Positions 3,210 to 17,671 of a DNA stretch of 32,648 nt are shown piece by piece (position 1 is the first letter of the stretch; the number at the start of each line of letters is the position of its first letter). Position numbers and translations under genes: made by a program. The DNA is from Elusimicrobiota bacterium (lineage in GTDB: Bacteria; CG03; SLGR01; JAGXOG01), in contig JAQICQ010000101.1 of NCBI GenBank assembly GCA_027858455.1, positions 1-32,648 of the forward strand, given 5' to 3'. The notes under the pieces are model-generated. The model was given only the letters and a program-made list of their open reading frames with translations. It did no database searches and was not told the DNA's origin.

Positions 3210-5330
3210 TTATATTTGGCGGTATCTGAATCCGTCTTTTAATTTTTTCCCTTTTTTCTTAAAGAGGTCCCTTATATGATCATCCATGGTAAAATAAAAT
3301 ATCTGCCACCCTGCCGCGGCCGCAGACACCAGGCTTTCTGTTAAATATTCTCTTCTTTTCCAATCCGTATGCTGGAAAGCGTCGTCAAATATAAAAAACA
3401 TCTTCCTGTCCCCCATGACTTTGCGGGTAATTCCCATCCTCAGGGCAATAAGTATCTGTTCAAGAGCGCCGGTGGATATGTCCGCGACATTGTAATCCCT
3501 GTATTTATCCGAAACAATAACTTTTTTGCCGTCAAGTTTCACCCTGTTATATCTTTGGGTAATCTCTTTGACGGGGGACTGGACTATATCCGACGAGAGG
3601 CTCTCTTTAATTTTTTTGTCCTCTTTTAATTTTAGTTCTTCAATTACTTTATATACAGAATTCAACCCTATAATTTTTGCCCGGAGCTGTTTCAACCTGC
3701 TTAAAATATTTTCCCTTTTCTTCCTCAGCTTATCTATCAGCCTGTTAAAGCTCTCGTTTATATCGGCTGAAGTTTCCTGCACCAGCCTGTTTTTAATTTC
3801 CCCCAGGCTGTCGAGATATCCCTCTCTTTTCTCTTCTGCCTTTTGTCTTTCTTCTTCAAGCTCTCTTAATTTTTTTTCATCATATTCCTCGCCGGCTCTC
3901 TCTTTTAAATATTCTTCCTGACCTAAATTTAATTTGGCGAGTTCTTTTTCGGTATCGGATATGTTTTTCTCGTTTTCCCTGATTTTATTTTTAAAATCAT
4001 CTGCGGCTTCTTCCCATTTTACCGTTTCCGGTGCTTTAGCCGGTTCCGGTACATTAGAAGGTATCTTTAAAAATATTTGATTTATCTCATTTGTTAAGCC
4101 TTGCAGTTTCCGGCGCGGCTCTTTTATGTTCTCTTTTATATCACTCGCGCGGTCGCGGTATCTTTCTTCTTCCTTAAGTTTCTCTTTAAGATCGCTGAAT
4201 CCTGTTAATTCCCGTCTAAAAAGCCGATTATATTTCTCCCGTATAGCTTTTACTTCTTCAGAAGCATTCTTGTTGATAAAAACACCCCTCTTTTTAAAAA
4301 TTAAAAAAAGAACCGCAAATATAGCTGCAATAACCGGAGACAGCATTTTAGAAATACCCAGCATCGGCACCAAAGCAGTAAGGGCAAGAGCTGTTATTAT
4401 TAAAATATTCTGGCGGAAAGAACTAATTTTTCCCCCTTTTAAAATACCGTCATAAATATCCGCCGCTTCCGCGAGCCAGACATAATTCCCTGATAAACTT
4501 TTTGCTTCTTTTAATCTCGCCTCGTCCCTGACGATATTTTCTTTGGTGGTTTTATATTCAACAATTTTATTCCTAAGCATCTCAGCTTCGTCGGGATTGA
4601 GCTCGCCGCGAAGGCTCTTTAATTCTTCCGCCCGGCGGAATAATATATATCCCCGATGACGGCGCGCGCGATTCTGCTCTTTTATCTTTTCATCCGCAAG
4701 CTCCATCTCGCGGTTTAACGATACCACCGGCCCCAGTGTATAGTTTCTATTTATATCATTTAAAAGTTTCTCGGTTTTCTCAAGTTCTTCCCGCGCGGCA
4801 TACATATCCCTGGCATCGTTTGATTTCCTGGAAATATTTATTATACCTTCTTTTACCTGCGCTTCCGTGAAAGTCGCGGGTATCTTTCCTTCTATTTTGT
4901 CTAAAATTTCCCTTTCCGACAAAAGCCGTTTAACGGCTCCGGGATTTACGCCTCCGGGACCGTCTGAAATAGCCGAATCGGCACCTTTTATCACAAGGAG
5001 TTTCTCAAGGCCGGGAGGAAGCCCTCTGCCTGTCTTTTCCATATATTTTTTAAGCTTTTCTTTTGCGGCGGGAGAAAATTCTTTGGCCTTTTCATGAAGC
5101 CCGCTGACCGTGATTTTTCCCACGGACCCGATATCTCTTAAGTTCCATCTCTTTTCGGAACCTAAATTTGCGGAACCTAAAAGAGAGTTTATAATAAATT
5201 CTACAATATAGGTTTTTCCCGTTTCATTTTTTCCGTATATTAAATTAAGGTCACCCGGCTCCATTATAAATTCATCAACCGGGCCCAGCCGGCTGATGCT
5301 TATTTTTTTTATCCTTACGGAGTTATTCAT
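3210..5330 (-). CDS. Rad50/SbcC/YhaN-like SMC-type ATPase with a central transmembrane hairpin
   Basis: 706 aa. The N-terminal Walker A is LIYGKNETGKTY (5211..5234). Long Lys/Glu/Arg-rich predicted coiled-coil arms follow. The C-terminus has the ABC signature-like ISTGALEQ, Walker B KMFFIFDD and an H-loop-like AFQHTD. Residues about 307-346 are two hydrophobic helices. The protein contains no cysteine. Its start overlaps the upstream gene by 8 nt. Confidence 0.8.
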   Translation of the reverse strand: MNNSVRIKKISISRLGPVDEFIMEPGDLNLIYGKNETGKTYIVEFIINSLLGSANLGSEKRWNLRDIGSVGKITVSGLHEKAKEFSPAAKEKLKKYMEKTGRGLPPGLEKLLVIKGADSAISDGPGGVNPGAVKRLLSEREILDKIEGKIPATFTEAQVKEGIINISRKSNDARDMYAAREELEKTEKLLNDINRNYTLGPVVSLNREMELADEKIKEQNRARRHRGYILFRRAEELKSLRGELNPDEAEMLRNKIVEYKTTKENIVRDEARLKEAKSLSGNYVWLAEAADIYDGILKGGKISSFRQNILIITALALTALVPMLGISKMLSPVIAAIFAVLFLIFKKRGVFINKNASEEVKAIREKYNRLFRRELTGFSDLKEKLKEEERYRDRASDIKENIKEPRRKLQGLTNEINQIFLKIPSNVPEPAKAPETVKWEEAADDFKNKIRENEKNISDTEKELAKLNLGQEEYLKERAGEEYDEKKLRELEEERQKAEEKREGYLDSLGEIKNRLVQETSADINESFNRLIDKLRKKRENILSRLKQLRAKIIGLNSVYKVIEELKLKEDKKIKESLSSDIVQSPVKEITQRYNRVKLDGKKVIVSDKYRDYNVADISTGALEQILIALRMGITRKVMGDRKMFFIFDDAFQHTDWKRREYLTESLVSAAAAGWQIFYFTMDDHIRDLFKKKGKKLKDGFRYRQI

Positions 5331-6399
5331 ATACTGCCTTTAAGGCCTCAAGGAGAAGACCGTTCTTTGACGGAGAGAGGGGGTCTGAAAAATCCCAGTC
5401 CAGGTTATTCTCTATCCATTCCTTAACTCGTGAAGCTATCTCGTCAAGTTCTTTATTGCCGGTTATGTGCAGATTAGTTGTGTCTATCTGTTCGCCGTCG
5501 GCGTTATCGTAAAAATTAAACCCGGAAAAGCTGTCCCGGATTGCGCTGACGGCCTCTTTTATATCTCCGATATATCCCGATGCTTTTATCCGTATGCGGG
5601 TCTTTTTAATCTCATTTTTGCTTAATTGCCATTTTTCAATTAACTCCCGCGACACTGATTTAATATATTTTTTAAGGTCGTCAACCGGAAGGAGTATAAT
5701 TTCTTCCGACTGGTATATGACAGGAGAATCCGTCCGGACAGATTCTATCTTAAGGGATTTTGTATCTAAAAGTATAAACCTTCTTTTTCCGGTTTCGTTT
5801 ATATCCAGGGGCGCCGGGGAGCCTGGATAATGAATTTTTGAGGTATCGGTAATCTTATGAATATGGCCGAGAATAACTTTTGCCGGACGGTATCTTTCAA
5901 TATCGGTATCAGAAAGAGGCATATATACTCCCGGCTCAAGAGGATTTAGATTCCCGGCCCCGCGGAGCCGGTCGCCGTGACCTATTAGAACCCATTCATC
6001 TTCTTTTAATTTTTGTTTAAAAGGCTCTATTGCCTCCCCCATTGTCTTTTCGGCGTCATACGGGACAAACAAAAAAACACGGCCGCCGATTTTAATTATA
6101 TCCGGAGAGCCGTCTATGACTTTTACATTGTCTGCTTTAATTTTTTTTGCGGAAAATCCGGCATCGTGGTTTCCCGGTATAACGTATATATTTATACCGT
6201 TAAACTCTTTTGAAGAACAAAGCTTATCAAAACCGGAATAATTAGTCATATCTTTGTCAAAAAGGTCACCGGCGATAATTAAATCTTTGGTGCCGGTTTT
6301 TTTTAACCGGGTTAAAATATGCTCAAGGACGGCGTATCTTTCAGGCCTCTCTTTATTTAAATGTATATCTGCGGTTATCGCTGTCTTATAATTATAAAT
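5323..6399 (-). CDS. Mre11/SbcD/YhaO-like calcineurin-type metallophosphoesterase, with the start revised upstream to ATT 6399..6397
   Basis: The ORF track starts at ATG 6249 and includes VIPGNHD, LIGHGD and VILGHIHK. The same frame is open upstream to a TAA at 6402..6400. That upstream stretch encodes IYNYKTAITADIHLNKERPERYAVLEHILTRLKKTGTKDLIIAGDLFDKD, which supplies phosphoesterase motif I (DxH) and motif II (GDxxD). It contains no ATG, GTG or TTG. A GGGGGG run at 6412..6407 sits 7 nt before the ATT. The stop codon is certain and the exact start is uncertain. Confidence 0.75.
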   Translation of the reverse strand: MYNYKTAITADIHLNKERPERYAVLEHILTRLKKTGTKDLIIAGDLFDKDMTNYSGFDKLCSSKEFNGINIYVIPGNHDAGFSAKKIKADNVKVIDGSPDIIKIGGRVFLFVPYDAEKTMGEAIEPFKQKLKEDEWVLIGHGDRLRGAGNLNPLEPGVYMPLSDTDIERYRPAKVILGHIHKITDTSKIHYPGSPAPLDINETGKRRFILLDTKSLKIESVRTDSPVIYQSEEIILLPVDDLKKYIKSVSRELIEKWQLSKNEIKKTRIRIKASGYIGDIKEAVSAIRDSFSGFNFYDNADGEQIDTTNLHITGNKELDEIASRVKEWIENNLDWDFSDPLSPSKNGLLLEALKAVYE

Positions 6400-7396
6400 T
6401 TAACGGCCCCCCTGAATAGTTTTTCTGTTCATACATCTTTTTATCCGCTTCTTTTATAAGCCCACCTAAATTTCTTTTGCTTTTGCCGGAATAATCTATC
6501 GCGTACCCTATGCTTATATCGGGAGTTATCGTGACTTCCGGCGCAATATTAACGGTTAACTTTTCCAGTCCGCCTTTAAGCCTAGCAATAAACTCCCCGG
6601 CTCTCTCCGCATCCTGGTTAAAGAGCATAAAAATAAATTCGTCACCGCCGTAGCGGGCCACGATGTCCGAAGCCCGGATTTCCTTTTGAAATAGATTTGA
6701 CACTTGCACCAGGACTTTATCCCCTGAAGGATGTCCGTACCGGTCGTTTATTTCCTTGAATTTATCTATATCGCAAAGCAGTACGGCGACCGGTTTTTTA
6801 TCTCTTCGCGCTACTTCCAACAGAAAAGCCGCATTCTGGAAAAAATATCTTCTGTTTTTAAGCCCTGTCAGCGGATCCCTGACGCTGGCAGTAACCAATT
6901 TTCTTTTTTCATTCAATAAAAGCTTAATGGAATTTAAAAGAACGTATTTCATCCGATCATTTTTAAATTTTTTAAGCCCTATGTCGGTAAATCTGTCAAG
7001 ATGATCTTCATACATCGTTTTAGGGTTAAAAACCGTCTTGTCAAAAATTATATCATGGGTATTCATTATCCTCTGCATAGGCGAAATCAAGGCGGAATAT
7101 TCCATATTCATGGTAAATTCCAGCATTTCAAGCGGAGTATAATCATTATTTTTAACTTTTTTGAGGGTTTTCCCGGCTTCAGCTATAAGTTTTTTCATTA
7201 TATTTTTTGCTCTTTTTTTGTCTTCCAGCTGAAGCACTTTAAGATTATATTCTCGCTCCTGTAAATAATGCCAATACTTTAAATGTTTGCTCTCGTCCCT
7301 GGACATCTCTTTCCACATTTCTTTGAGGTCTTTAGGAATACCCGGCTTCATGGACAGAGCCATATAAATATTTTCCAGCAGCGCGTCAAGATCCAA
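6392..7396 (-). CDS. Diguanylate cyclase (GGDEF domain) with an unassigned N-terminal helical domain
   Basis: 334 aa. Motifs are DPLTGLKNRRYF, LLCDIDKFKEINDRYGHPSGD and the active site RYGGDEF. RASD (an RxxD I-site) lies 5 residues upstream of the active site. The roughly 170-aa N-terminal domain has no motif I recognise beyond an ExxH-like ESKH. The track start is TTG 7396 with no SD. ATG 7363 and ATG 7351 are alternatives. Confidence 0.85.
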   Translation of the reverse strand: MDLDALLENIYMALSMKPGIPKDLKEMWKEMSRDESKHLKYWHYLQEREYNLKVLQLEDKKRAKNIMKKLIAEAGKTLKKVKNNDYTPLEMLEFTMNMEYSALISPMQRIMNTHDIIFDKTVFNPKTMYEDHLDRFTDIGLKKFKNDRMKYVLLNSIKLLLNEKRKLVTASVRDPLTGLKNRRYFFQNAAFLLEVARRDKKPVAVLLCDIDKFKEINDRYGHPSGDKVLVQVSNLFQKEIRASDIVARYGGDEFIFMLFNQDAERAGEFIARLKGGLEKLTVNIAPEVTITPDISIGYAIDYSGKSKRNLGGLIKEADKKMYEQKNYSGGPLNL

Positions 7397-7611
7397 ATAG
7401 TTTTGAATTAATTCTTTAATTTTAAAACTACTTTTTTTAATAACTATCTTATTATATATAAAATGGTGTCGGAGACAAACTTATTAACTTATTGTTTTTC
7501 CAAACGACTTTTAAAATGGGCGAAACCTACTTTTATTTTTAAATGAGATGCCGGCATATTAAAATGCTTGCGGATAAATGATAAAATTAACCTTTTAAAT
7601 ATAATATTACT

Positions 7612-9822
7612 ATGAAAAAACAAGACTTGGAAACAGCAGTTAAAATAATCAGCAGCCTCCGGATAGCCATTTCAAATATACGCCTCTATCCTGAGACAAG
7701 CAACATAGTAACTGATTCAATTGACGATGTTTACGGAAAGATACAGAACCTTTTACATAAATACGATCATCTTTCTTTTGCCGAAACCTCTGCAAATCTT
7801 ATAATAAACGACAAAATTATAAAACAAAATTTCAAGGCGCTTATACCTGCCGATGTCTATCGGACCTTTGTAGAGACATTAATGCATTCTCATATAAAAT
7901 GCTTATCTTTTAAAGACGGGCTCAGCCGGGAAGATTTTTATTTTTTTATAAAAATATTCTCGGAAAAGCACTGGCGCCGGGAAGGCGACATGATGGTCCT
8001 GACTACTATTTTAAAAGAAAAAAATATAGATACCATACGGCTCAACGAAAAGGTATACCAGGCCGTAGGAGAGACCGACCTTGTAGTTAAAGAAGGAATG
8101 GACTATTTAAAGCGCAACGAAGGCGAAATTGATATTTTAGTAAAAACTTTAGAGGAAGTGGCAGAAATTGCCCGGACAGATAAAGAGAAGGTCTTTAACG
8201 ACGAGATACGCACAAATGTAATTAATAAAATGATGGAACTTAAACCGGAGCTTCTCGTTAACTTCTTCAAACGAAAAAGAACCCCCAAAGTTGAAAAAAT
8301 AAAAGACACAATAGTCGAAGGCCTGCCCGCCCGGCAGATAAAAGAGGTTATCTCTAAGGTTACAACGGTATATAAAACGATAAAAAATGAAACTCCTCCG
8401 GGCTCAAAAAAAGAAGCCGAACTTTTAAAACTCAAAGAGACCATCAACTCTCTGCTCTCCTCCTGCAGGGACAGGGAGGCTTCTCTGGAAATTTTTAATA
8501 TGCTGAAAGATGACAACCTTGACGAGCTCCTCCCGGCGTGGTGGGATAAACCCGAAAAATCCAAGATGGGGCTCCTTGTCTCAAAAGGCAGAATTTTAAT
8601 TGAAAAAGATTCTGCGGAACTTTTAGACCCGGCGATAAGAGACGACATCATAAAAATTATACGCCAGATGGAAAAGATAGGAAAAGAAGAGATTATCCGC
8701 GGCCTTTTACAAAAACTTAAAGAAAATTTTCTCGCTAATACAGCAGCGACGAGGCTGGAGGCGGTAAAATTTTATAAAACATTAAAACCGACGCTTGACT
8801 CTCTTGCAAATAACGAACTGGCTTTACTTTTAGAACCGGTTCTCTGGGATATCATAGAAAAAGAGACCGACGAAACGGTCTACAGCCTCATAGCCGACAT
8901 CCAGTCACAGGCAATAGAAAACTCCGTAAAGGATTGCGACTATCAAAAAGCCAGAGAGATACTTGCTATATTCAGAAAACACCGGGCGCTGAAAAAAGAA
9001 GGATTCCAGGGAAGGGCGGAAAAAGCCGAAGAATATCTTAAAAAATCAGCCACAAACCGCGTACTCAAACTTTTAATAGAAGATTTAAGGTCGAGGGAAA
9101 AAGAAAGGCAGGATAACTCCTACAAGGTGCTCCTCCAGATGGAGGAGTTTATGACTCCTAAAATGATAGGCGCCATAAAAAAGACAGCTGACCTGGGGCT
9201 GAGGGAACTTATGGCAAGAATAATAGTAAAGGTAGGAGAAAAAGCTGTTCTTTCCCTCATAAGCGAGGCAGAAAAAGGTATTCCCTCAGGCGATGTTAAA
9301 AATATAATAGAGATACTTCCCACCCTTGATAAAAAATCCATATCCCTTGCAAAACTGCGCTATACAATGAACCACTACGCCGTTGAAGTGCGGGTGCAAT
9401 CGGTAAAAACAGCAATGGAATTCGGCCCTGACGGCCGGGATATACTAATTTACGCCCTGGACGACGAAAATATAAAAGTCAGGACACTGGCAATCGAGGG
9501 AATGGGAATTTTAAAAGACAAGGAATTGTTTGACCTTTTTAAGAATAAGGACAAAACAAATATTGAAGAAAGACTTTTCTGCGAAGCTCTCGGCGGACTA
9601 AATATGCCGGCCGCCCAAAACTATCTGATTAAGATAGCCTCGCCGAAAAAAAGATTTTGGAGAAAAAGAAAACCGCGTGAAGTCCGAGTGGCTGCGATAA
9701 AAACGCTTGAACACTACCCCGGACCTAAAACAGAGAGCGTTCTTGACCGGTTAAAAAACTCTTCTGATAAGTTTATCCGCTCTAACGCCAAATACATACT
9801 GAAAAAAATACAAGAACAATAA
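7612..9822 (+). CDS. Large alpha-helical protein with C-terminal HEAT (PBS-lyase type) repeats, function unknown
   Basis: 736 aa. The C-terminal third shows HEAT-like periodicity (VRVQSVKTAMEFGPDGRDILIYALDDENIKVRTLAIEGMGIL...VRVAAIKTLEHY...DKFIRSNAKYIL). I recognise no catalytic motif. It is one of only two plus-strand genes and is divergent from the GGDEF operon. Confidence 0.6.
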   Translation: MKKQDLETAVKIISSLRIAISNIRLYPETSNIVTDSIDDVYGKIQNLLHKYDHLSFAETSANLIINDKIIKQNFKALIPADVYRTFVETLMHSHIKCLSFKDGLSREDFYFFIKIFSEKHWRREGDMMVLTTILKEKNIDTIRLNEKVYQAVGETDLVVKEGMDYLKRNEGEIDILVKTLEEVAEIARTDKEKVFNDEIRTNVINKMMELKPELLVNFFKRKRTPKVEKIKDTIVEGLPARQIKEVISKVTTVYKTIKNETPPGSKKEAELLKLKETINSLLSSCRDREASLEIFNMLKDDNLDELLPAWWDKPEKSKMGLLVSKGRILIEKDSAELLDPAIRDDIIKIIRQMEKIGKEEIIRGLLQKLKENFLANTAATRLEAVKFYKTLKPTLDSLANNELALLLEPVLWDIIEKETDETVYSLIADIQSQAIENSVKDCDYQKAREILAIFRKHRALKKEGFQGRAEKAEEYLKKSATNRVLKLLIEDLRSREKERQDNSYKVLLQMEEFMTPKMIGAIKKTADLGLRELMARIIVKVGEKAVLSLISEAEKGIPSGDVKNIIEILPTLDKKSISLAKLRYTMNHYAVEVRVQSVKTAMEFGPDGRDILIYALDDENIKVRTLAIEGMGILKDKELFDLFKNKDKTNIEERLFCEALGGLNMPAAQNYLIKIASPKKRFWRKRKPREVRVAAIKTLEHYPGPKTESVLDRLKNSSDKFIRSNAKYILKKIQEQ

Positions 9823-9902: not shown

Positions 9903-10412
9903 TCAGCAATCTGTTTTGCTAAATCCTTTTGTTTTATCTTTTTTTACCATATAAAGTCTTTTCAAATCTGATATATCAATAGTGCGGTTAGCCGCTTTCT
10001 TATTCAAAATAAGATCCTCCAAACTAATATAATATGTATCTTCCTCGCCGTATTTGCCGGCAATTTTATGTTTTATAGTTTCTCCTGTGTCTATTCCTTC
10101 AATGCTATTAGTTATATGAACCTTGATTGGATCCTCTCCTATTTGAAAAAAAGAAGGTTTATTTTTGGTAAAATATTTCTCGTTAAGTTCATACTGTTTC
10201 TCTAAACTTTCCGTAGTAATACCCATAAAGTTTGCAATAGATTTAACTGTTTTTTTGCTGTTTCCCGGTGATTTATCAATAAGACAATTAATATCTGTAG
10301 TATAGCGCGGTTTAGCATAGTAGGATACCGCCATTGCTCCTACAATACAATATTCAACTTCAAATTTATTAAAAGTTTTTATGAAATCTTTAAAATCTTT
10401 TTCATGTCTCAC
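9903..10412 (-). CDS. Small nucleotidyltransferase-fold protein (MNT-like family) with substituted catalytic residues
   Basis: 169 aa. FEVEYCIVGAMAVSYYAKPRYTTDINCLID matches the hG[GS]...DxD layout of small NTase-fold proteins, but it reads VGA and DIN where VGG and DID are expected. The C-terminal ISLEDLILNKKAANRTIDISDLKRL is typical of this family (from memory). The GTG start overlaps the upstream gene by 11 nt, and GAGGA lies 8 nt upstream. Confidence 0.6.
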   Translation of the reverse strand: MRHEKDFKDFIKTFNKFEVEYCIVGAMAVSYYAKPRYTTDINCLIDKSPGNSKKTVKSIANFMGITTESLEKQYELNEKYFTKNKPSFFQIGEDPIKVHITNSIEGIDTGETIKHKIAGKYGEEDTYYISLEDLILNKKAANRTIDISDLKRLYMVKKDKTKGFSKTDC

Positions 10413-10617
10413 GGCGCAAATCCTCTATAGATATTTTTTTTGCATATTTACGATTCATTTTCCGGGGCTTTATGCCTTTTAATTCATAATATTGTTCTCG
10501 CAGATATTGAGTCATATCAAGCCGCTGCCGGGGCGTTAGTGAAAAATCATGTTCATCAGCAGCTTTTTCAAGCTCTTCAAAAGATGCACAAATTTTGGTA
10601 TATGTTTTTTTTGTCAT
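10402..10617 (-). CDS. Small partner protein of the NTase-fold gene (antitoxin-like position, no recognised domain)
   Basis: 71 aa. ATG 10617 is preceded by TAAGGAG. The gene overlaps the downstream NTase-fold gene and lies downstream of a consensus sigma70-type promoter. Confidence 0.55.
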   Translation of the reverse strand: MTKKTYTKICASFEELEKAADEHDFSLTPRQRLDMTQYLREQYYELKGIKPRKMNRKYAKKISIEDLRRET

Positions 10618-13792: not shown

Positions 13793-16700
13793 TTATCGGG
13801 ATCTGTCCCGTAAATCTTTTTTCTTATTAAATATCTCAGCTATTTTACGAAGAAGATCTTTGACATTATAGGGTTTATTTATAAACGGTATATTATTTTT
13901 TACTATCTCTTCTGTCTGACCTTTTTTATCAAGATAACCGCTGGTAAGAAGCATATTTTTAGGCGGTTTTATCTTTTTTAGTTCTTCTATGAGTTCAAGT
14001 CCTGTGCCGTCGGGCAGAATCATATCGCTGAAAACCAGATCAAAATCGCCTTTTTGCTCTTTATAGATATTTACCGCCTTGCCTTTATCAGAGGCGGAAA
14101 CAGGTTTATAATTATTTTTTCCAAGAATTCTGGCGGCAAGCTTTAATATCTGCTGCTCGTCCTCAACGATTAAAATCTTTTGCCCCCGGCCAGTATCTGC
14201 TTTATGGTCTTTTTCTTTTACCGGTTTTTTATTTATTTCTTCTTCCAAGGCCGGAAAATACATACTGAACCTGGTTCCCTCTCCCGGCTCTGTCCATACT
14301 TTTATCACAGCGTCATGGTCTTTAATTATGCCAAATACTACCGATAAGCCCAGACCCGTGCCCTCTGTTTTTTTTGTGGTAAAAAATGGTTCAAAAATAT
14401 TTTCAACCGTCTTTTTATCCATCCCTCTGCCTGAATCTTCTACAGTAAGACAGATATACTTTCCCGGAAAAATATCACCGTATATGGTATGCTCTGTTTC
14501 TTTTATATTTTCAACTTTAGTTTCAATAATAATTTCACCGCCGTCCGGCATAGCATAGAGAGAGTTTACCGTCAGATTGGTAATAACCTGCTCTATATTT
14601 GTCCTGTCAGCTTTCACACTAACCCCCTCTGCGGCAAGCCGGGCATCTATAGTAATATCTTCCCCTAAAAGCCGGCCGAGCATCTTCAGCATATCTTTAA
14701 CTACGGCGTCTATATTAATATTGTTTTTTTCCGCCGGTGTTGTCCGGCTAAATACCAGCAACTGCCCGACAAGGTCCGCCGCCCGCAATGAGCTTTTCTT
14801 TATGTTTTCTATGTCTTTTCTGTCCTGCCCCTTAATTCTTTCTTCTTCAAGAAGCAGTTCCGCATCGCCTATTATTGATGTAAGTATATTGTTGAAATCA
14901 TGCGCTATCCCCCCGGCGAGAGTCCCTATTGACTCCATTTTCTGGGAATGCTGCAGCTGATTCATCAAACTTTCACTATTTTTTGCCATCTTTCTTTTCT
15001 CTAAGTCATGGCTTATTATATGGACCACATCATTAATAAATAATTCAGTGCTTTTATCTAATTCGGGTTTTACCTTATTAGAAAAACATATATCAAATGA
15101 AAGCGCGGCGGCTAATTTTTTTTCTCTATAGACAGGATAAAGCCATAAATAATCTATATCCCACTCTTCTTTGAATTTTTTTACTACACTGTTAAAAAGG
15201 GGCTTTAAAAAAGCCGGGATTTTATCTTTTAAGATATCTTCGTTTATCAGATGTTTTCCTGTTTTCAGCGCATAGTCTAATAGCTTTCTCGGTACGGCTT
15301 CACCCCGTGTAGATTTAACTCCGTCCGCCACCCACTCTACGGAGACGACTTTTTTATCCTGTTCGGCTGTGTAAATATAACTCACGCGGGAAACATCCAA
15401 AACCGGACCTATCTTGTTTAGCACTCTCTCTATAAGAGCCTTTTCATCCGAGAAAAATTTTTCATCCGAACTTTTAAGCGCGGCCAGTTTCCATATCTCG
15501 GTTTTTATTTTATTAAACTTTCTCTGTTTCTTACGTATATGCTGATATTTAATACTTTTGGTTATATCTTTACCCATGCCCGAAAAGCCTGTAAGGTGTC
15601 CGTCTTTATCAAATATCGGAGAAATTGTAAGTTCAATATATATTTTTTCGCCGGACTTAGTCTTTTCGGCAATCCTTAGCGTCTGCGGTTTTTTTTCTTT
15701 TATTACCCGGTCTTTTGCTTTCTCTATAATTTCGCGGTCTCTTTCAGCATGATACATCAACCGAATTTGCTTTTTGCCTATCATCTCTTTTGCGCTGTAT
15801 CCAAAGATATTCTGCGCGCCCTTGTTCCAGTAGGTTATCGTCCCGTCTATATCGGAAACAATTATTGATACAGCCAAAGAACTTTCCAAAATATTATTTA
15901 AAAATATGTTAAGGGACTCTTTCTCCCTGACGGATTCAGCGAGGTTTAATTCCGCCTCAGATAATTTTATATTTTGGTGGTTTAATTGGGAAGTTTTTTT
16001 TCTAACTTTTTTCTTTAATACAACTGACCATATAAACGAAAATAGCATTACCAGTAAAAGCGGAATGATTACATAAAGTCCGTATCTTAAAAAAGACGCC
16101 AGGTTGTTTTTTTCATAAACACCGAACCATTTATCATATATTTCCCTGTAGCGTCCTGTTTCATTTATCTCCGCAAGAGCCGCCGACAGGAGTCCTGCAA
16201 GCCGGATGTCGCCTTCTTTAACCGCAAAACAGTATTCTTCCGAAGAAATCGGTATTTTCGCTAACTCTATATTTTGTAAATTATTTTCTTTTTTCAGGTA
16301 AACCGCAGTTAAATAACTTCCGAGAGCGCAATCGTAGCGGCCTCCGTCAATCATCTTAAGCGCTTCCTCCTGGTTAGCGACGACAGTTATATTTTTCCCG
16401 TAACCGTACTTAAGAGCCTGCTCGTGCATAATATCGCCTTTCTGGACTAATATGGATTTGCCCTCAAGCTTCTTTAGGGATTTTAACTTCTCCCCCCCTT
16501 TTCTATAGGCAATACCCTGACTTATTACTGTATGGGACTGACTGAAATCATATATTTTTTCGCGCTCCGCGGAATAAAGCATTCCCTGGATAATATCTAT
16601 CTTGCCTTCGGCAAGGCGCTCTTTGGTTTCCGCCCACGGAGCAAGTATGATCCTTATATCCAGCCCGGCCTGCTCGGCAACTGCTCTTATGATATCTACA

Positions 16701-17569
16701 TTAAAACCGGCAGGGCGCCCTTTTTTATCCAAAAATTCATAGGGCGGGAAATCGCTGTCTCCTCCGACAAGCAACTTCGTTTCCCCTCTTTTTTCAACCG
16801 GCCTTATCCACTTAAGATAAAGGCGGCGGTATATATCTTTTGCTATGACCCTTGAGAGCCCTTCGTTTAACACACTTAAAAGTTCTGCATCGCCTTCTTT
16901 TACAGCAAAACAAAAATGCTGGGGAAACTCTTCTAGCGGCTCGCCGGCAATCTTTAAATTATCAAGCCCGAGGTCATCTGTCAGCTGCAGGGCAAGAAGC
17001 TTCTGGATTATAACGGCGTCAACTTTGCCCGCCGATAATTTCTTAACTGCTTCCTCATAAGTCGCCTCAGCTATTATGTCGGCATCAAGGTTAATGCGAC
17101 TTACAAACTCTTCGGCATTGTCCCCTTTCATAACCGCTACTTTTTTGCCTTTAAGGTCATTTAAAGAAAATATGCCGGTCGTCTCCCCGCGGACTAAAAT
17201 CACTCCGCGCATCGTAAGGTAGGGAACCGTAAAATCAAAATTCTCTTCCCTTTCCCGGGTTCGCCCCACAAGGGGAAGAAAATCAACCTCTCCCTTTTCA
17301 AGAGATTCTTTAACATCTTTCCAGTACCCGATTTTAAATTCAACTCCCAATCCCATCTCTTTAAGCGTTGCCCTTAAAAGCTCGACGGCAAAGCCGTCAG
17401 CTTCTCCCGAATCATCTACAACAGAGTAAGGAGGATAACCTATTTCACTGGCTGATTTTAAAACAGTTCCTTCAGGAAACCGGCGCTCTTGCGCTTCAAC
17501 CGGTAAGCCGGAAAACAGCAGCAACCCTGCCGGGATAATTATCTTTAAAATCTTAAATTTTAGTTTCAT
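13793..17569 (-). CDS. Hybrid sensor histidine kinase: two periplasmic solute-binding (SBP_bac_3) domains, TM, PAS, unassigned region, HisKA, HATPase, receiver
   Basis: The track ORF starts at TTG 17644. I prefer ATG 17569 (MKLKFKILKIIIPAGLLLFSGLPVEAQ, a signal peptide), and ATG 17599 is also possible. The two SBP-like domains contain EIGYPPYSVVDDSGEADGFAVELL and GGDSDFPPYEFLDKKGRPAGFNVDII. The TM segment is YVIIPLLLVMLFSFIWSVVL and the PAS domain contains DGTITYWNKGAQNIFGYSAKEMIGK. Kinase motifs are the H-box GGIAHDFNNILTSI and the G-boxes DSGRGMD and GTGLGLS. The receiver contains ILIVEDE...LVFSDMILPDGTG. Confidence 0.85.
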   Translation of the reverse strand: MKLKFKILKIIIPAGLLLFSGLPVEAQERRFPEGTVLKSASEIGYPPYSVVDDSGEADGFAVELLRATLKEMGLGVEFKIGYWKDVKESLEKGEVDFLPLVGRTREREENFDFTVPYLTMRGVILVRGETTGIFSLNDLKGKKVAVMKGDNAEEFVSRINLDADIIAEATYEEAVKKLSAGKVDAVIIQKLLALQLTDDLGLDNLKIAGEPLEEFPQHFCFAVKEGDAELLSVLNEGLSRVIAKDIYRRLYLKWIRPVEKRGETKLLVGGDSDFPPYEFLDKKGRPAGFNVDIIRAVAEQAGLDIRIILAPWAETKERLAEGKIDIIQGMLYSAEREKIYDFSQSHTVISQGIAYRKGGEKLKSLKKLEGKSILVQKGDIMHEQALKYGYGKNITVVANQEEALKMIDGGRYDCALGSYLTAVYLKKENNLQNIELAKIPISSEEYCFAVKEGDIRLAGLLSAALAEINETGRYREIYDKWFGVYEKNNLASFLRYGLYVIIPLLLVMLFSFIWSVVLKKKVRKKTSQLNHQNIKLSEAELNLAESVREKESLNIFLNNILESSLAVSIIVSDIDGTITYWNKGAQNIFGYSAKEMIGKKQIRLMYHAERDREIIEKAKDRVIKEKKPQTLRIAEKTKSGEKIYIELTISPIFDKDGHLTGFSGMGKDITKSIKYQHIRKKQRKFNKIKTEIWKLAALKSSDEKFFSDEKALIERVLNKIGPVLDVSRVSYIYTAEQDKKVVSVEWVADGVKSTRGEAVPRKLLDYALKTGKHLINEDILKDKIPAFLKPLFNSVVKKFKEEWDIDYLWLYPVYREKKLAAALSFDICFSNKVKPELDKSTELFINDVVHIISHDLEKRKMAKNSESLMNQLQHSQKMESIGTLAGGIAHDFNNILTSIIGDAELLLEEERIKGQDRKDIENIKKSSLRAADLVGQLLVFSRTTPAEKNNINIDAVVKDMLKMLGRLLGEDITIDARLAAEGVSVKADRTNIEQVITNLTVNSLYAMPDGGEIIIETKVENIKETEHTIYGDIFPGKYICLTVEDSGRGMDKKTVENIFEPFFTTKKTEGTGLGLSVVFGIIKDHDAVIKVWTEPGEGTRFSMYFPALEEEINKKPVKEKDHKADTGRGQKILIVEDEQQILKLAARILGKNNYKPVSASDKGKAVNIYKEQKGDFDLVFSDMILPDGTGLELIEELKKIKPPKNMLLTSGYLDKKGQTEEIVKNNIPFINKPYNVKDLLRKIAEIFNKKKDLRDRSR

Positions 17570-17671
17570 TAATATATTTTCCAAATTCTTTTCCATCATC
17601 TTATTTACAAGTTCCGGTAAACAAACCCCTTCCTGCATAACCAACCCACTGCTATTTACAAGTAATAACGG

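Follow-up and report, generated by a model that had tools for sequence, protein, structure and literature searches.

We analysed a 32,648-nucleotide (nt) stretch of DNA from an Elusimicrobiota bacterium (assembly GCA_027858455.1, contig JAQICQ010000101.1, positions 1 to 32,648; hereafter the window), in which three open reading frames (ORFs) follow each other on the minus strand from 7396 to 3210. They encode a GGDEF diguanylate cyclase, a metallophosphoesterase resembling SbcD and Mre11 (hereafter the nuclease) and an ATPase resembling Rad50. An earlier note on this DNA had delimited the same ORFs, all of which are present, and had proposed that the cyclic di-GMP (c-di-GMP) synthase is functionally coupled to the nuclease and the ATPase. 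Our analysis points to a different reading: the conserved unit is probably the pair of nuclease and ATPase genes, the cyclase is a local newcomer, and the coupling is one of expression, not that of a dedicated c-di-GMP-linked machine. The two genes of the pair are adjacent, nuclease before ATPase, in 88 of 90 genome loci and in 56 of 57 metagenome loci. We looked for a GGDEF gene immediately preceding the pair in approximately 75 genome loci that include upstream DNA and in 49 metagenome loci, and the only case was a contig of the same species. The elements of the locus are the following.

7451..7478, minus strand: sigma-70-like promoter match TTGTCT-16-TATAAT, 10/12 (consensus match only)
6392..7396, minus strand: GGDEF diguanylate cyclase gene, 334 amino acids (aa), TTG start (ORF and domain searches)
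6887..7396, minus strand: N-terminal six-helix sensor-type domain of the cyclase, residues 1-170 (alignment, profile search)
6419..6883, minus strand: GGDEF catalytic domain, residues 172-326 (PF00990, fold search, direct reading)
6407..6413, minus strand: Shine-Dalgarno-like run AGGGGGG (direct reading)
6392..6399, minus strand: junction 1, ATTTATAA, putative AUU start of the nuclease over the TAA stop of the cyclase (direct reading)
5323..6399, minus strand: SbcD/Mre11-like metallophosphoesterase, open frame of 358 codons (ORF, PF00149, alignment)
5323..5330, minus strand: junction 2, ATGAATAA, ATG of the ATPase over the TAA of the nuclease (direct reading)
3210..5330, minus strand: Rad50/SMC-like ABC ATPase of the YhaN/SbcE type, 706 aa (ORF, profile and fold searches)
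5214..5237, minus strand: Walker A motif GKNETGKT, residues 32-39 (direct reading, alignment)
4284..4415, minus strand: predicted central transmembrane helical hairpin, residues ~306-349, at the coiled-coil apex (hydropathy, AlphaFold2 model)
3363..3476, minus strand: signature STGALEQ, Walker B FFIFDD and D-loop, residues 619-656 (direct reading, alignment)
7612..9822, plus strand: divergent HEAT-repeat gene, used as synteny anchor (orthologue in L004, see below)

The pair belongs to a large family. A word-indexed search returned 21 relatives of the ATPase and a pattern scan using one genome per species returned 318, while an exhaustive HMMER search gave about 750 ATPase clusters at 50% identity (E ≤ 1e-30), mostly of about 700 aa. 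The nuclease has 686 relatives at E ≤ 1e-20; metagenome contigs were scanned with the nuclease alignment, the single nuclease protein having matched nothing as a query. Most carriers are uncultivated and fall in the Elusimicrobiota, Actinomycetota, KSB1, Calditrichota, Anaerolineales and other Chloroflexota, Spirochaetes and Bacteroidales. The few loci at which the two genes are not adjacent correspond to contig edges and to one gap of 286 nt. The junctions between nuclease and ATPase genes are tight: 41 of 137 overlap and 84 have gaps of at most 30 nt. Clustering of the neighbouring genes revealed no third gene conserved across the family, and only clade-specific synteny (Rnf, PolX/Nth, ACT, Met_synt_B12-like). 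For example, L014, L016 and about 16 more actinomycetotal loci carry genes for a PHP-domain family-X DNA polymerase and endonuclease III 1-3 kb upstream on the same strand, with Rnf-complex genes downstream on the other strand, a DNA-repair-flavoured setting found in this one clade. In L013 (8013..8729) and eight other loci, a gene resembling Met_synt_B12 (methionine synthase activation) overlaps the 3' end of the ATPase gene on the same strand.

The close relatives of the window bear on the arrival of the cyclase gene. The contig L007 has 99.0% identical DNA, hence is the same species in another sample, and has the GGDEF gene upstream and an identical junction. Besides L007, just two lineages in the databases exceed 50% identity. 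In P0002 (63%) the contig ends inside the nuclease gene. In L004, whose nuclease and ATPase are 62% and 59% identical to those of the window, the region upstream of the pair contains the divergent HEAT gene (product 81% identical), a 177-nt spacer and then ATG-AAA-ATT-GCA, with no GGDEF gene. The cyclase gene of the window occupies the exact place of this spacer, and the spacers beside the HEAT gene in L004 and in the window are homologous over only about 32 nt, adjacent to the HEAT start. At no other pair locus did we find a relative of the N-terminal domain of the cyclase. Parsimony over about 125 loci thus indicates that the cyclase gene arrived beside the pair in this lineage. The HEAT-repeat gene, which we considered as a conserved partner of the pair, was rejected because it is present in L004 only; its product is a 736-aa protein of unknown function. 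Since the HEAT orthologues are 81% identical, the pair evolves much faster than its neighbour.

These comparisons answer the proposal of functional coupling. The earlier note had asked whether orthologous pairs in related genomes keep a GGDEF gene immediately upstream, and had itself named adjacency confined to this genome as refuting its proposal. What we find is adjacency in this species only, with the HEAT gene in the corresponding place in L004. We found no evidence for c-di-GMP as an input to, or an output from, the nuclease/ATPase machine. The proposal of a nuclease system coupled to c-di-GMP fails, and the three genes should therefore not be listed as a new system. The set of three genes is most likely a species-level juxtaposition produced by a local rearrangement.

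The cyclase is a clear member of the GGDEF family. Its residues 172-326 match PF00990 with 142.4 bits (cut-off 23.8), the protein matches TIGR00254 with 154 bits (cut-off 37.4), and its fold superimposes on a GGDEF domain of T. maritima with a TM-score of 0.9 and a root mean square deviation of 1.7 Å. Direct reading gives RYGGDEF at residues 248-254, as well as DIDKFKEINDRYGHPSGD. The RxxD inhibitory site (I-site), R241-A-S-D244, lies five residues before GGDEF and is followed by IVARY, which leads straight into the motif. The DxD...ND...GD substrate and metal residues are present. In an alignment of the few full-length relatives, RYGGDEF, D209, N217, D218 and D226, as well as the I-site residues R241 and D244, are invariant. 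The description of this cyclase as canonical in sequence is correct, and the protein is probably an independent, soluble diguanylate cyclase, predicted to be active.

The cyclase has a counterpart of known structure. The protein is a full-length homologue of PDB entry 3EZU (E 3.6e-59, residues 5-337 of 342), a Geobacter sulfurreducens protein of unknown function solved by structural genomics (NP_951600.1), and has the same N-terminal helical domain, which alone matches 3EZU with a profile E-value of 6.6e-15. The two proteins differ in that 3EZU reads RYDGDEF where the window cyclase has the canonical RYGGDEF. 3EZU is a stand-alone GGDEF protein with no link to any nuclease/ATPase pair. The N-terminal domain also matches ferritin-like diiron-carboxylate proteins, weakly (TM1526 at 0.0077). 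As the fold search is dominated by the GGDEF domain, its fold is placed by the sequence profile only. Six of its residues are invariant (E35, H38, W42, E99, Y129 and H132), of which E35, H38, E99 and H132 might bind metal, and the domain could possibly act as a metal or redox sensor. The orthologues of the cyclase are found in other contexts, without a nuclease/ATPase pair: the gene of a relative at 60% identity is followed by a ferredoxin gene, that of a relative at 44% is preceded by TusA and MJ1433-like genes, and that of a relative at 33% is preceded by a gene encoding a GAF-HD-GYP phosphodiesterase.

The arrival of the cyclase probably left a trace in the gene that follows it. The assignment of the nuclease to phosphoesterases with the Mre11/SbcD order of motifs is sound: it matches PF00149 with 47.9 bits (cut-off 21.5), and its five motifs follow one another in that order, with D11/H13, D45, N77-H78, H141 and H179/H181 invariant in the alignment. 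When the nuclease-family profile is compared with solved structures, E. coli SbcD comes best (9e-14), followed by Mre11 (4e-5). In contrast, the start codon that had been placed at 6399 is not a canonical one. The nuclease frame opens with an ATT right after an in-frame TAA, and its first ATG, GTG or TTG is the ATG at 6249, which would give a protein of 308 aa without the metal-binding motifs I and II. Both the ORF listing and the gene call of the Joint Genome Institute (JGI) on L007 give this truncated protein. In the family, 140 of 153 informative members have a canonical start codon (93 ATG, 40 TTG and 7 GTG) at one fixed place, exactly seven codons ahead of the aspartate of motif I. At this position the window and L007 have TAT, and no canonical start occurs upstream of motif I. 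The only other member that lacks a canonical start at the family position is L047 (468..1541), which reads CTG.

What is left for initiation is the ATT at 6399, which overlaps the stop codon of the cyclase. The AGGGGGG run ends 7 nt before it; the use of Shine-Dalgarno sequences within the window is variable, but real for some genes. Both junctions are indeed 8-nt overlaps (ATTTATAA at 6399..6392 and ATGAATAA at 5330..5323), as had been noted, and so have the same shape in their letters, but the first rests on a putative AUU start. AUU is known as a weak start codon in bacteria, for example in infC of E. coli. We also considered a fusion of cyclase and nuclease by frameshifting and rejected it: a -1 slip on A_AAU_UUA soon meets a stop codon, and the required +1 slip lacks a suitable slippery site. 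No stable RNA structure was detected at junction 1, where folding is no better than in shuffled sequences (z = 0.07), which argues against a frameshift-stimulating element. With the family start codon lost and only AUU left, the nuclease is either made by non-canonical or coupled initiation, or disabled at its N-terminus. The most economical reading is initiation at AUU, or termination-reinitiation coupled to translation of the cyclase.

A disabled nuclease deserves attention as an alternative. The nuclease might be untranslated, or made as the 308-aa form, in a module that is decaying or that works only as an ATPase or scaffold. The missing start codon, set against a fixed position in nearly all the family, and the choice of the truncated ORF by two gene callers are what one would see in a crippled gene. 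Moreover, there is no excess of synonymous changes between the window and L007 (synonymous/non-synonymous, 2/2 in the nuclease, 5/8 in the ATPase and 0/4 in the GGDEF gene), although these substitutions between 99% identical twins are too few for a test of selection by the ratio of non-synonymous to synonymous rates (dN/dS). We nevertheless find decay rather unlikely. The 50 codons before ATG 6249 are open and keep every catalytic residue, and of the 47 aligned residues encoded there 28 are identical to L004 by hand count (~60%), compared with 62% over the whole nuclease. The AGGGGGG run stands at an ideal spacing before an ATT that can serve as a weak start, and the downstream ATPase is intact.

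The same junction can be read in the opposite direction, as the signature of a lineage-restricted three-component system in which the cyclase serves as sensor or output subunit, with c-di-GMP regulating the complex or, conversely, DNA-end sensing regulating c-di-GMP, and with stoichiometry set by translational coupling. Both overlaps are of 8 nt, the nuclease start lies over the cyclase stop in two samples with identical junctions, every catalytic motif is intact, the nuclease needs an upstream gene for any plausible initiation, and a second clade has a REC-GGDEF gene in its upstream neighbourhood. We regard such a system as unlikely because its conservation stops at one species, and the orthologues of the cyclase, like 3EZU, stand alone or in other contexts. 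Neither the nuclease nor the ATPase has a PilZ, MshEN or other extra or c-di-GMP receptor domain, and their lengths are those of cyclase-free relatives; none of the 120 nuclease relatives listed is a GGDEF-nuclease fusion. GGDEF genes are numerous in such genomes, which makes a chance neighbour plausible. A more specific version holds that a cyclase with a ferritin-like sensor was captured as a true third subunit or regulator, with the nuclease synthesized by reinitiation at AUU and signalling and DNA-end processing tied together in stoichiometry and function. We think this very unlikely.

Several observations weigh against regarding the cyclase as a mere newcomer to a conserved pair. The tight overlap of 8 nt and the AGGGGGG run ending 7 nt ahead of the ATT give the impression of organisation rather than accident and could have been selected for fixed co-expression, and the catalytic residues of all three proteins are intact. 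There are few close lineages, and P0002 is cut, so that the claim that the arrangement is private to this species rests on one close comparator and on parsimony over about 125 distant loci. In a separate synteny block of KSB1 and Calditrichota, a REC-GGDEF gene with the same orientation as the pair lies 0.7-1.6 kb upstream of the nuclease gene. Finally, the window ATPase, which has no Pfam hit at E ≤ 0.01, is likened to YhaN of B. subtilis by description and not by sequence. Concerning the KSB1/Calditrichota-type block (L015, L020, L041, L043, L044, L071, L084, L096 and L097), it contains a two-component cluster ending in REC-GGDEF(-EAL), and between GGDEF and the pair there is always an opposite-strand gene with an ACT domain, sometimes accompanied by a thioesterase gene. 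This is a second and independent GGDEF neighbourhood but not an operon, and it probably goes back to a single ancestral arrangement.

We now turn to the conserved pair, starting with the ATPase. Its motifs were read directly: Walker A GKNETGKT at residues 32-39, the signature STGALEQ at 619-625 and Walker B FFIFDD at 645-650. The Walker A residues N35, E36, G38 and K39 are invariant in the family alignment. Walker B ends in Asp-Asp (D649-D650; 3381..3386) and not in Asp-Glu; both residues are invariant across the family, which suggests slow or unusual hydrolysis of ATP. An AlphaFold2 model (mean predicted local distance difference test score of 81) has a split ABC head, long helical arms and two apex helices at 306-324 and 331-347. 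Its top Foldseek match is Rad50 in the Chaetomium MRN complex (7zr1, 2e-11), followed by Smc5/6, with MukB, Lamassu LmuB and JetC also among the matches. Consistently, Rad50 ranks first against the ATPase-family profile, which matches its C-terminal lobe (1.4e-6). Among 15 relatives, seven match Pfam AAA_27 (PF13514, the YhaN-type N-terminal domain; best E 5.6e-7), and seven match SMC_N. The relatives of approximately 870-900 aa (P0006, P0012 and others, in Bacteroidales and Saccharicenans) form a subclass that is about 170-200 residues longer; its members match the profile in three separate parts and so probably have an additional coiled-coil segment.

The apex of the arms is where this family departs from Rad50. 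All 136 full-length relatives have a hydrophobic central segment, at a median relative position of 0.47 (Kyte-Doolittle scale, 19-residue window, score of at least 1.6); there is one such segment in 34 of them and at least two in the other 102. Only a single relative has a central CxxC, and the window ATPase contains no cysteine at all. In the window, the hydrophobic stretch is flanked on both sides by basic residues (..FRQN and FKKRGVFINK), and the connecting loop has about five residues. The basic flanks and the short loop agree with a hairpin that enters the membrane and leaves the two coiled-coil arms in the cytoplasm. The nucleotide-binding motifs, long helical arms and central hydrophobic hairpin (residues ~306-349) described earlier are thus present.

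A protein of this kind has been described in B. subtilis. There, SbcE (YhaN) is SbcC-like, lacks the CxxC and has a unique hydrophobic, insoluble central domain; its gene is downstream of the SbcD-like yhaO (SbcF). Genetics gave SbcE/SbcF roles in double-strand-break repair and transformation, and in competent cells SbcE forms foci at the cell poles (Krishnamurthy et al. 2009, PMC2811018). Literature searches on follow-ups of SbcE/SbcF, membrane-anchored Rad50-like proteins, COG4717 and PF13514 returned nothing beyond this paper. The window pair shares several of these features. In both, the gene of an SbcD-like phosphoesterase is directly upstream of that of an SMC/Rad50-like ATPase. Both ATPases have the layout from Walker A to signature and Walker B, two long heptad arms and a hydrophobic centre replacing the CxxC hook, and a distant relative of the window ATPase is named 'YhaN' by JGI. 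There are also differences. The window pair lacks a yhaM-like exoribonuclease gene downstream, and most members of its family come from uncultivated Elusimicrobiota, Actinomycetota, KSB1, Calditrichota and Chloroflexota. The window ATPase has 706 aa, compared with 963 aa in YhaN.

Mre11-Rad50 and SbcCD provide the other comparison. The window nuclease has the five phosphoesterase motifs in the Mre11 order and SbcD as its best profile match in PDB, the head of the ATPase is closest to Rad50 by profile and by fold, and the genes are adjacent and often overlapping. However, the ATPase has no zinc hook and would have a transmembrane hairpin at its apex instead, its Walker B reads Asp-Asp, and its coiled coils are much shorter than those of SbcC. 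The nuclease is below the cut-offs of the NCBIfam SbcD models (TIGR00619, 40.3 bits against 77.65; NF008206, 40.8 against 450). We conclude that the pair is a distant module of the YhaO/YhaN (SbcF/SbcE) type, likened by description, and neither a classical SbcCD nor a recognised defence system. This agrees with the earlier impression that it is closer to YhaO/YhaN than to SbcCD.

A precedent for the kind of coupling proposed for the cyclase is given by DisA-RadA. DisA is a c-di-AMP synthase that scans DNA integrity, and the system links a cyclic-dinucleotide synthase conceptually and genomically to the processing of DNA damage. It differs from the window in its messenger (c-di-AMP, made by a DAC domain) and in that the synthase itself binds DNA. 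Furthermore, the DisA-RadA linkage is conserved in many genomes, whereas the GGDEF linkage of the window is not.

Combinations of an SMC-like ATPase and a nuclease are also found in anti-phage and anti-plasmid defence, and the earlier note had raised the idea of a defence module. In this scenario the pair, with or without the cyclase, would act like Lamassu, Septu or Wadjet and cut incoming DNA at the membrane, where a tether would suit the interception of entering DNA. PADLOC gave weak matches of the ATPase to LmuB and PtuA (E 5.5e-7 to 7e-4; up to 2.4e-3 over all matches), mostly over residues 5-56, i.e. the P-loop region, although one (PDLC03868, LmuB, E 3.5e-4) spans residues 367-575. The fold matches to LmuB and JetC point the same way. 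In L001, a type I restriction-modification system follows the pair, and a separate N6_N4 methyltransferase gene lies upstream of it. Still, Rad50 outranks the defence ATPases in both sequence and fold searches. In the window there is no system-level PADLOC match, no defence partner gene and no defence-island context, the neighbourhood is housekeeping, and synteny is stable within clades, as with PolX and endonuclease III upstream of the pair in Actinomycetota. We give hardly any credence to a defence function.

The data suggest the following model. By analogy with Mre11-Rad50 and SbcCD, the pair would form a nuclease2-ATPase2 complex whose ATP-driven heads and nuclease are cytoplasmic. In place of a zinc hook, its antiparallel coiled coils would end in a hairpin of two transmembrane helices, which would hold the complex at the inner face of the cytoplasmic membrane and perhaps dimerise it as well. 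The pair probably processes DNA ends near the membrane, as proposed on genetic grounds for SbcE/SbcF in B. subtilis. In the lineage of this species, a rearrangement would have set the cyclase gene between the divergent HEAT gene and the nuclease gene, replacing the 5' region and the ATG of the latter. Transcription of the pair would now probably start at the cyclase promoter; the candidate at 7451..7478, about 55 nt upstream of the GGDEF start, is the only good one for all three genes. Translation of the nuclease would begin at the AUU over the cyclase stop, either by initiation assisted by the Shine-Dalgarno run or by termination-reinitiation. As expression of the pair would hang on the cyclase promoter and the overlapping AUU, the coupling would be one of expression.

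The surroundings of the locus are those of an ordinary chromosome. The window encodes an FKBP isomerase, a sulfotransferase, AMMECR1, TrkA/TrkH, a radical-SAM enzyme, phosphofructokinase, BipA, PtsI and a hybrid histidine kinase. Base composition is even over the region, and the absence of direct or inverted repeats around the GGDEF gene gives no sign of insertion by a mobile element. At 9903..10617 on the minus strand there are two small overlapping genes, of 71 and 169 aa, in a layout resembling that of toxin-antitoxin systems; the 169-aa product has a weak match to the DUF6036 nucleotidyltransferase (E 2.7e-4, below the cut-off). The hybrid histidine kinase (13793..17644, minus strand, 1283 aa) has two periplasmic SBP_bac_3 domains, PAS, HisKA/HATPase and a receiver domain.

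These results have consequences at three levels. For the cyclase, they provide a functional context for the orphan structure 3EZU, that of sensor cyclases which stand alone and carry a helical N-terminal domain that may bind metal. For the nuclease gene, the junction is a natural example of a rearrangement that took away a conserved start codon, so that only an AUU over an upstream stop is left, to be followed by coupled or non-canonical initiation, or by gene decay. For the pair, they reveal a large and essentially unstudied family, spread over many uncultivated phyla, in which an SbcD-like nuclease is associated with a Rad50-like ATPase that has a predicted transmembrane hairpin in place of the zinc hook. 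This family extends the poorly understood SbcE/SbcF type well beyond the Firmicutes, and its sequences are a clean set for asking what a membrane-tethered Mre11/Rad50 does.

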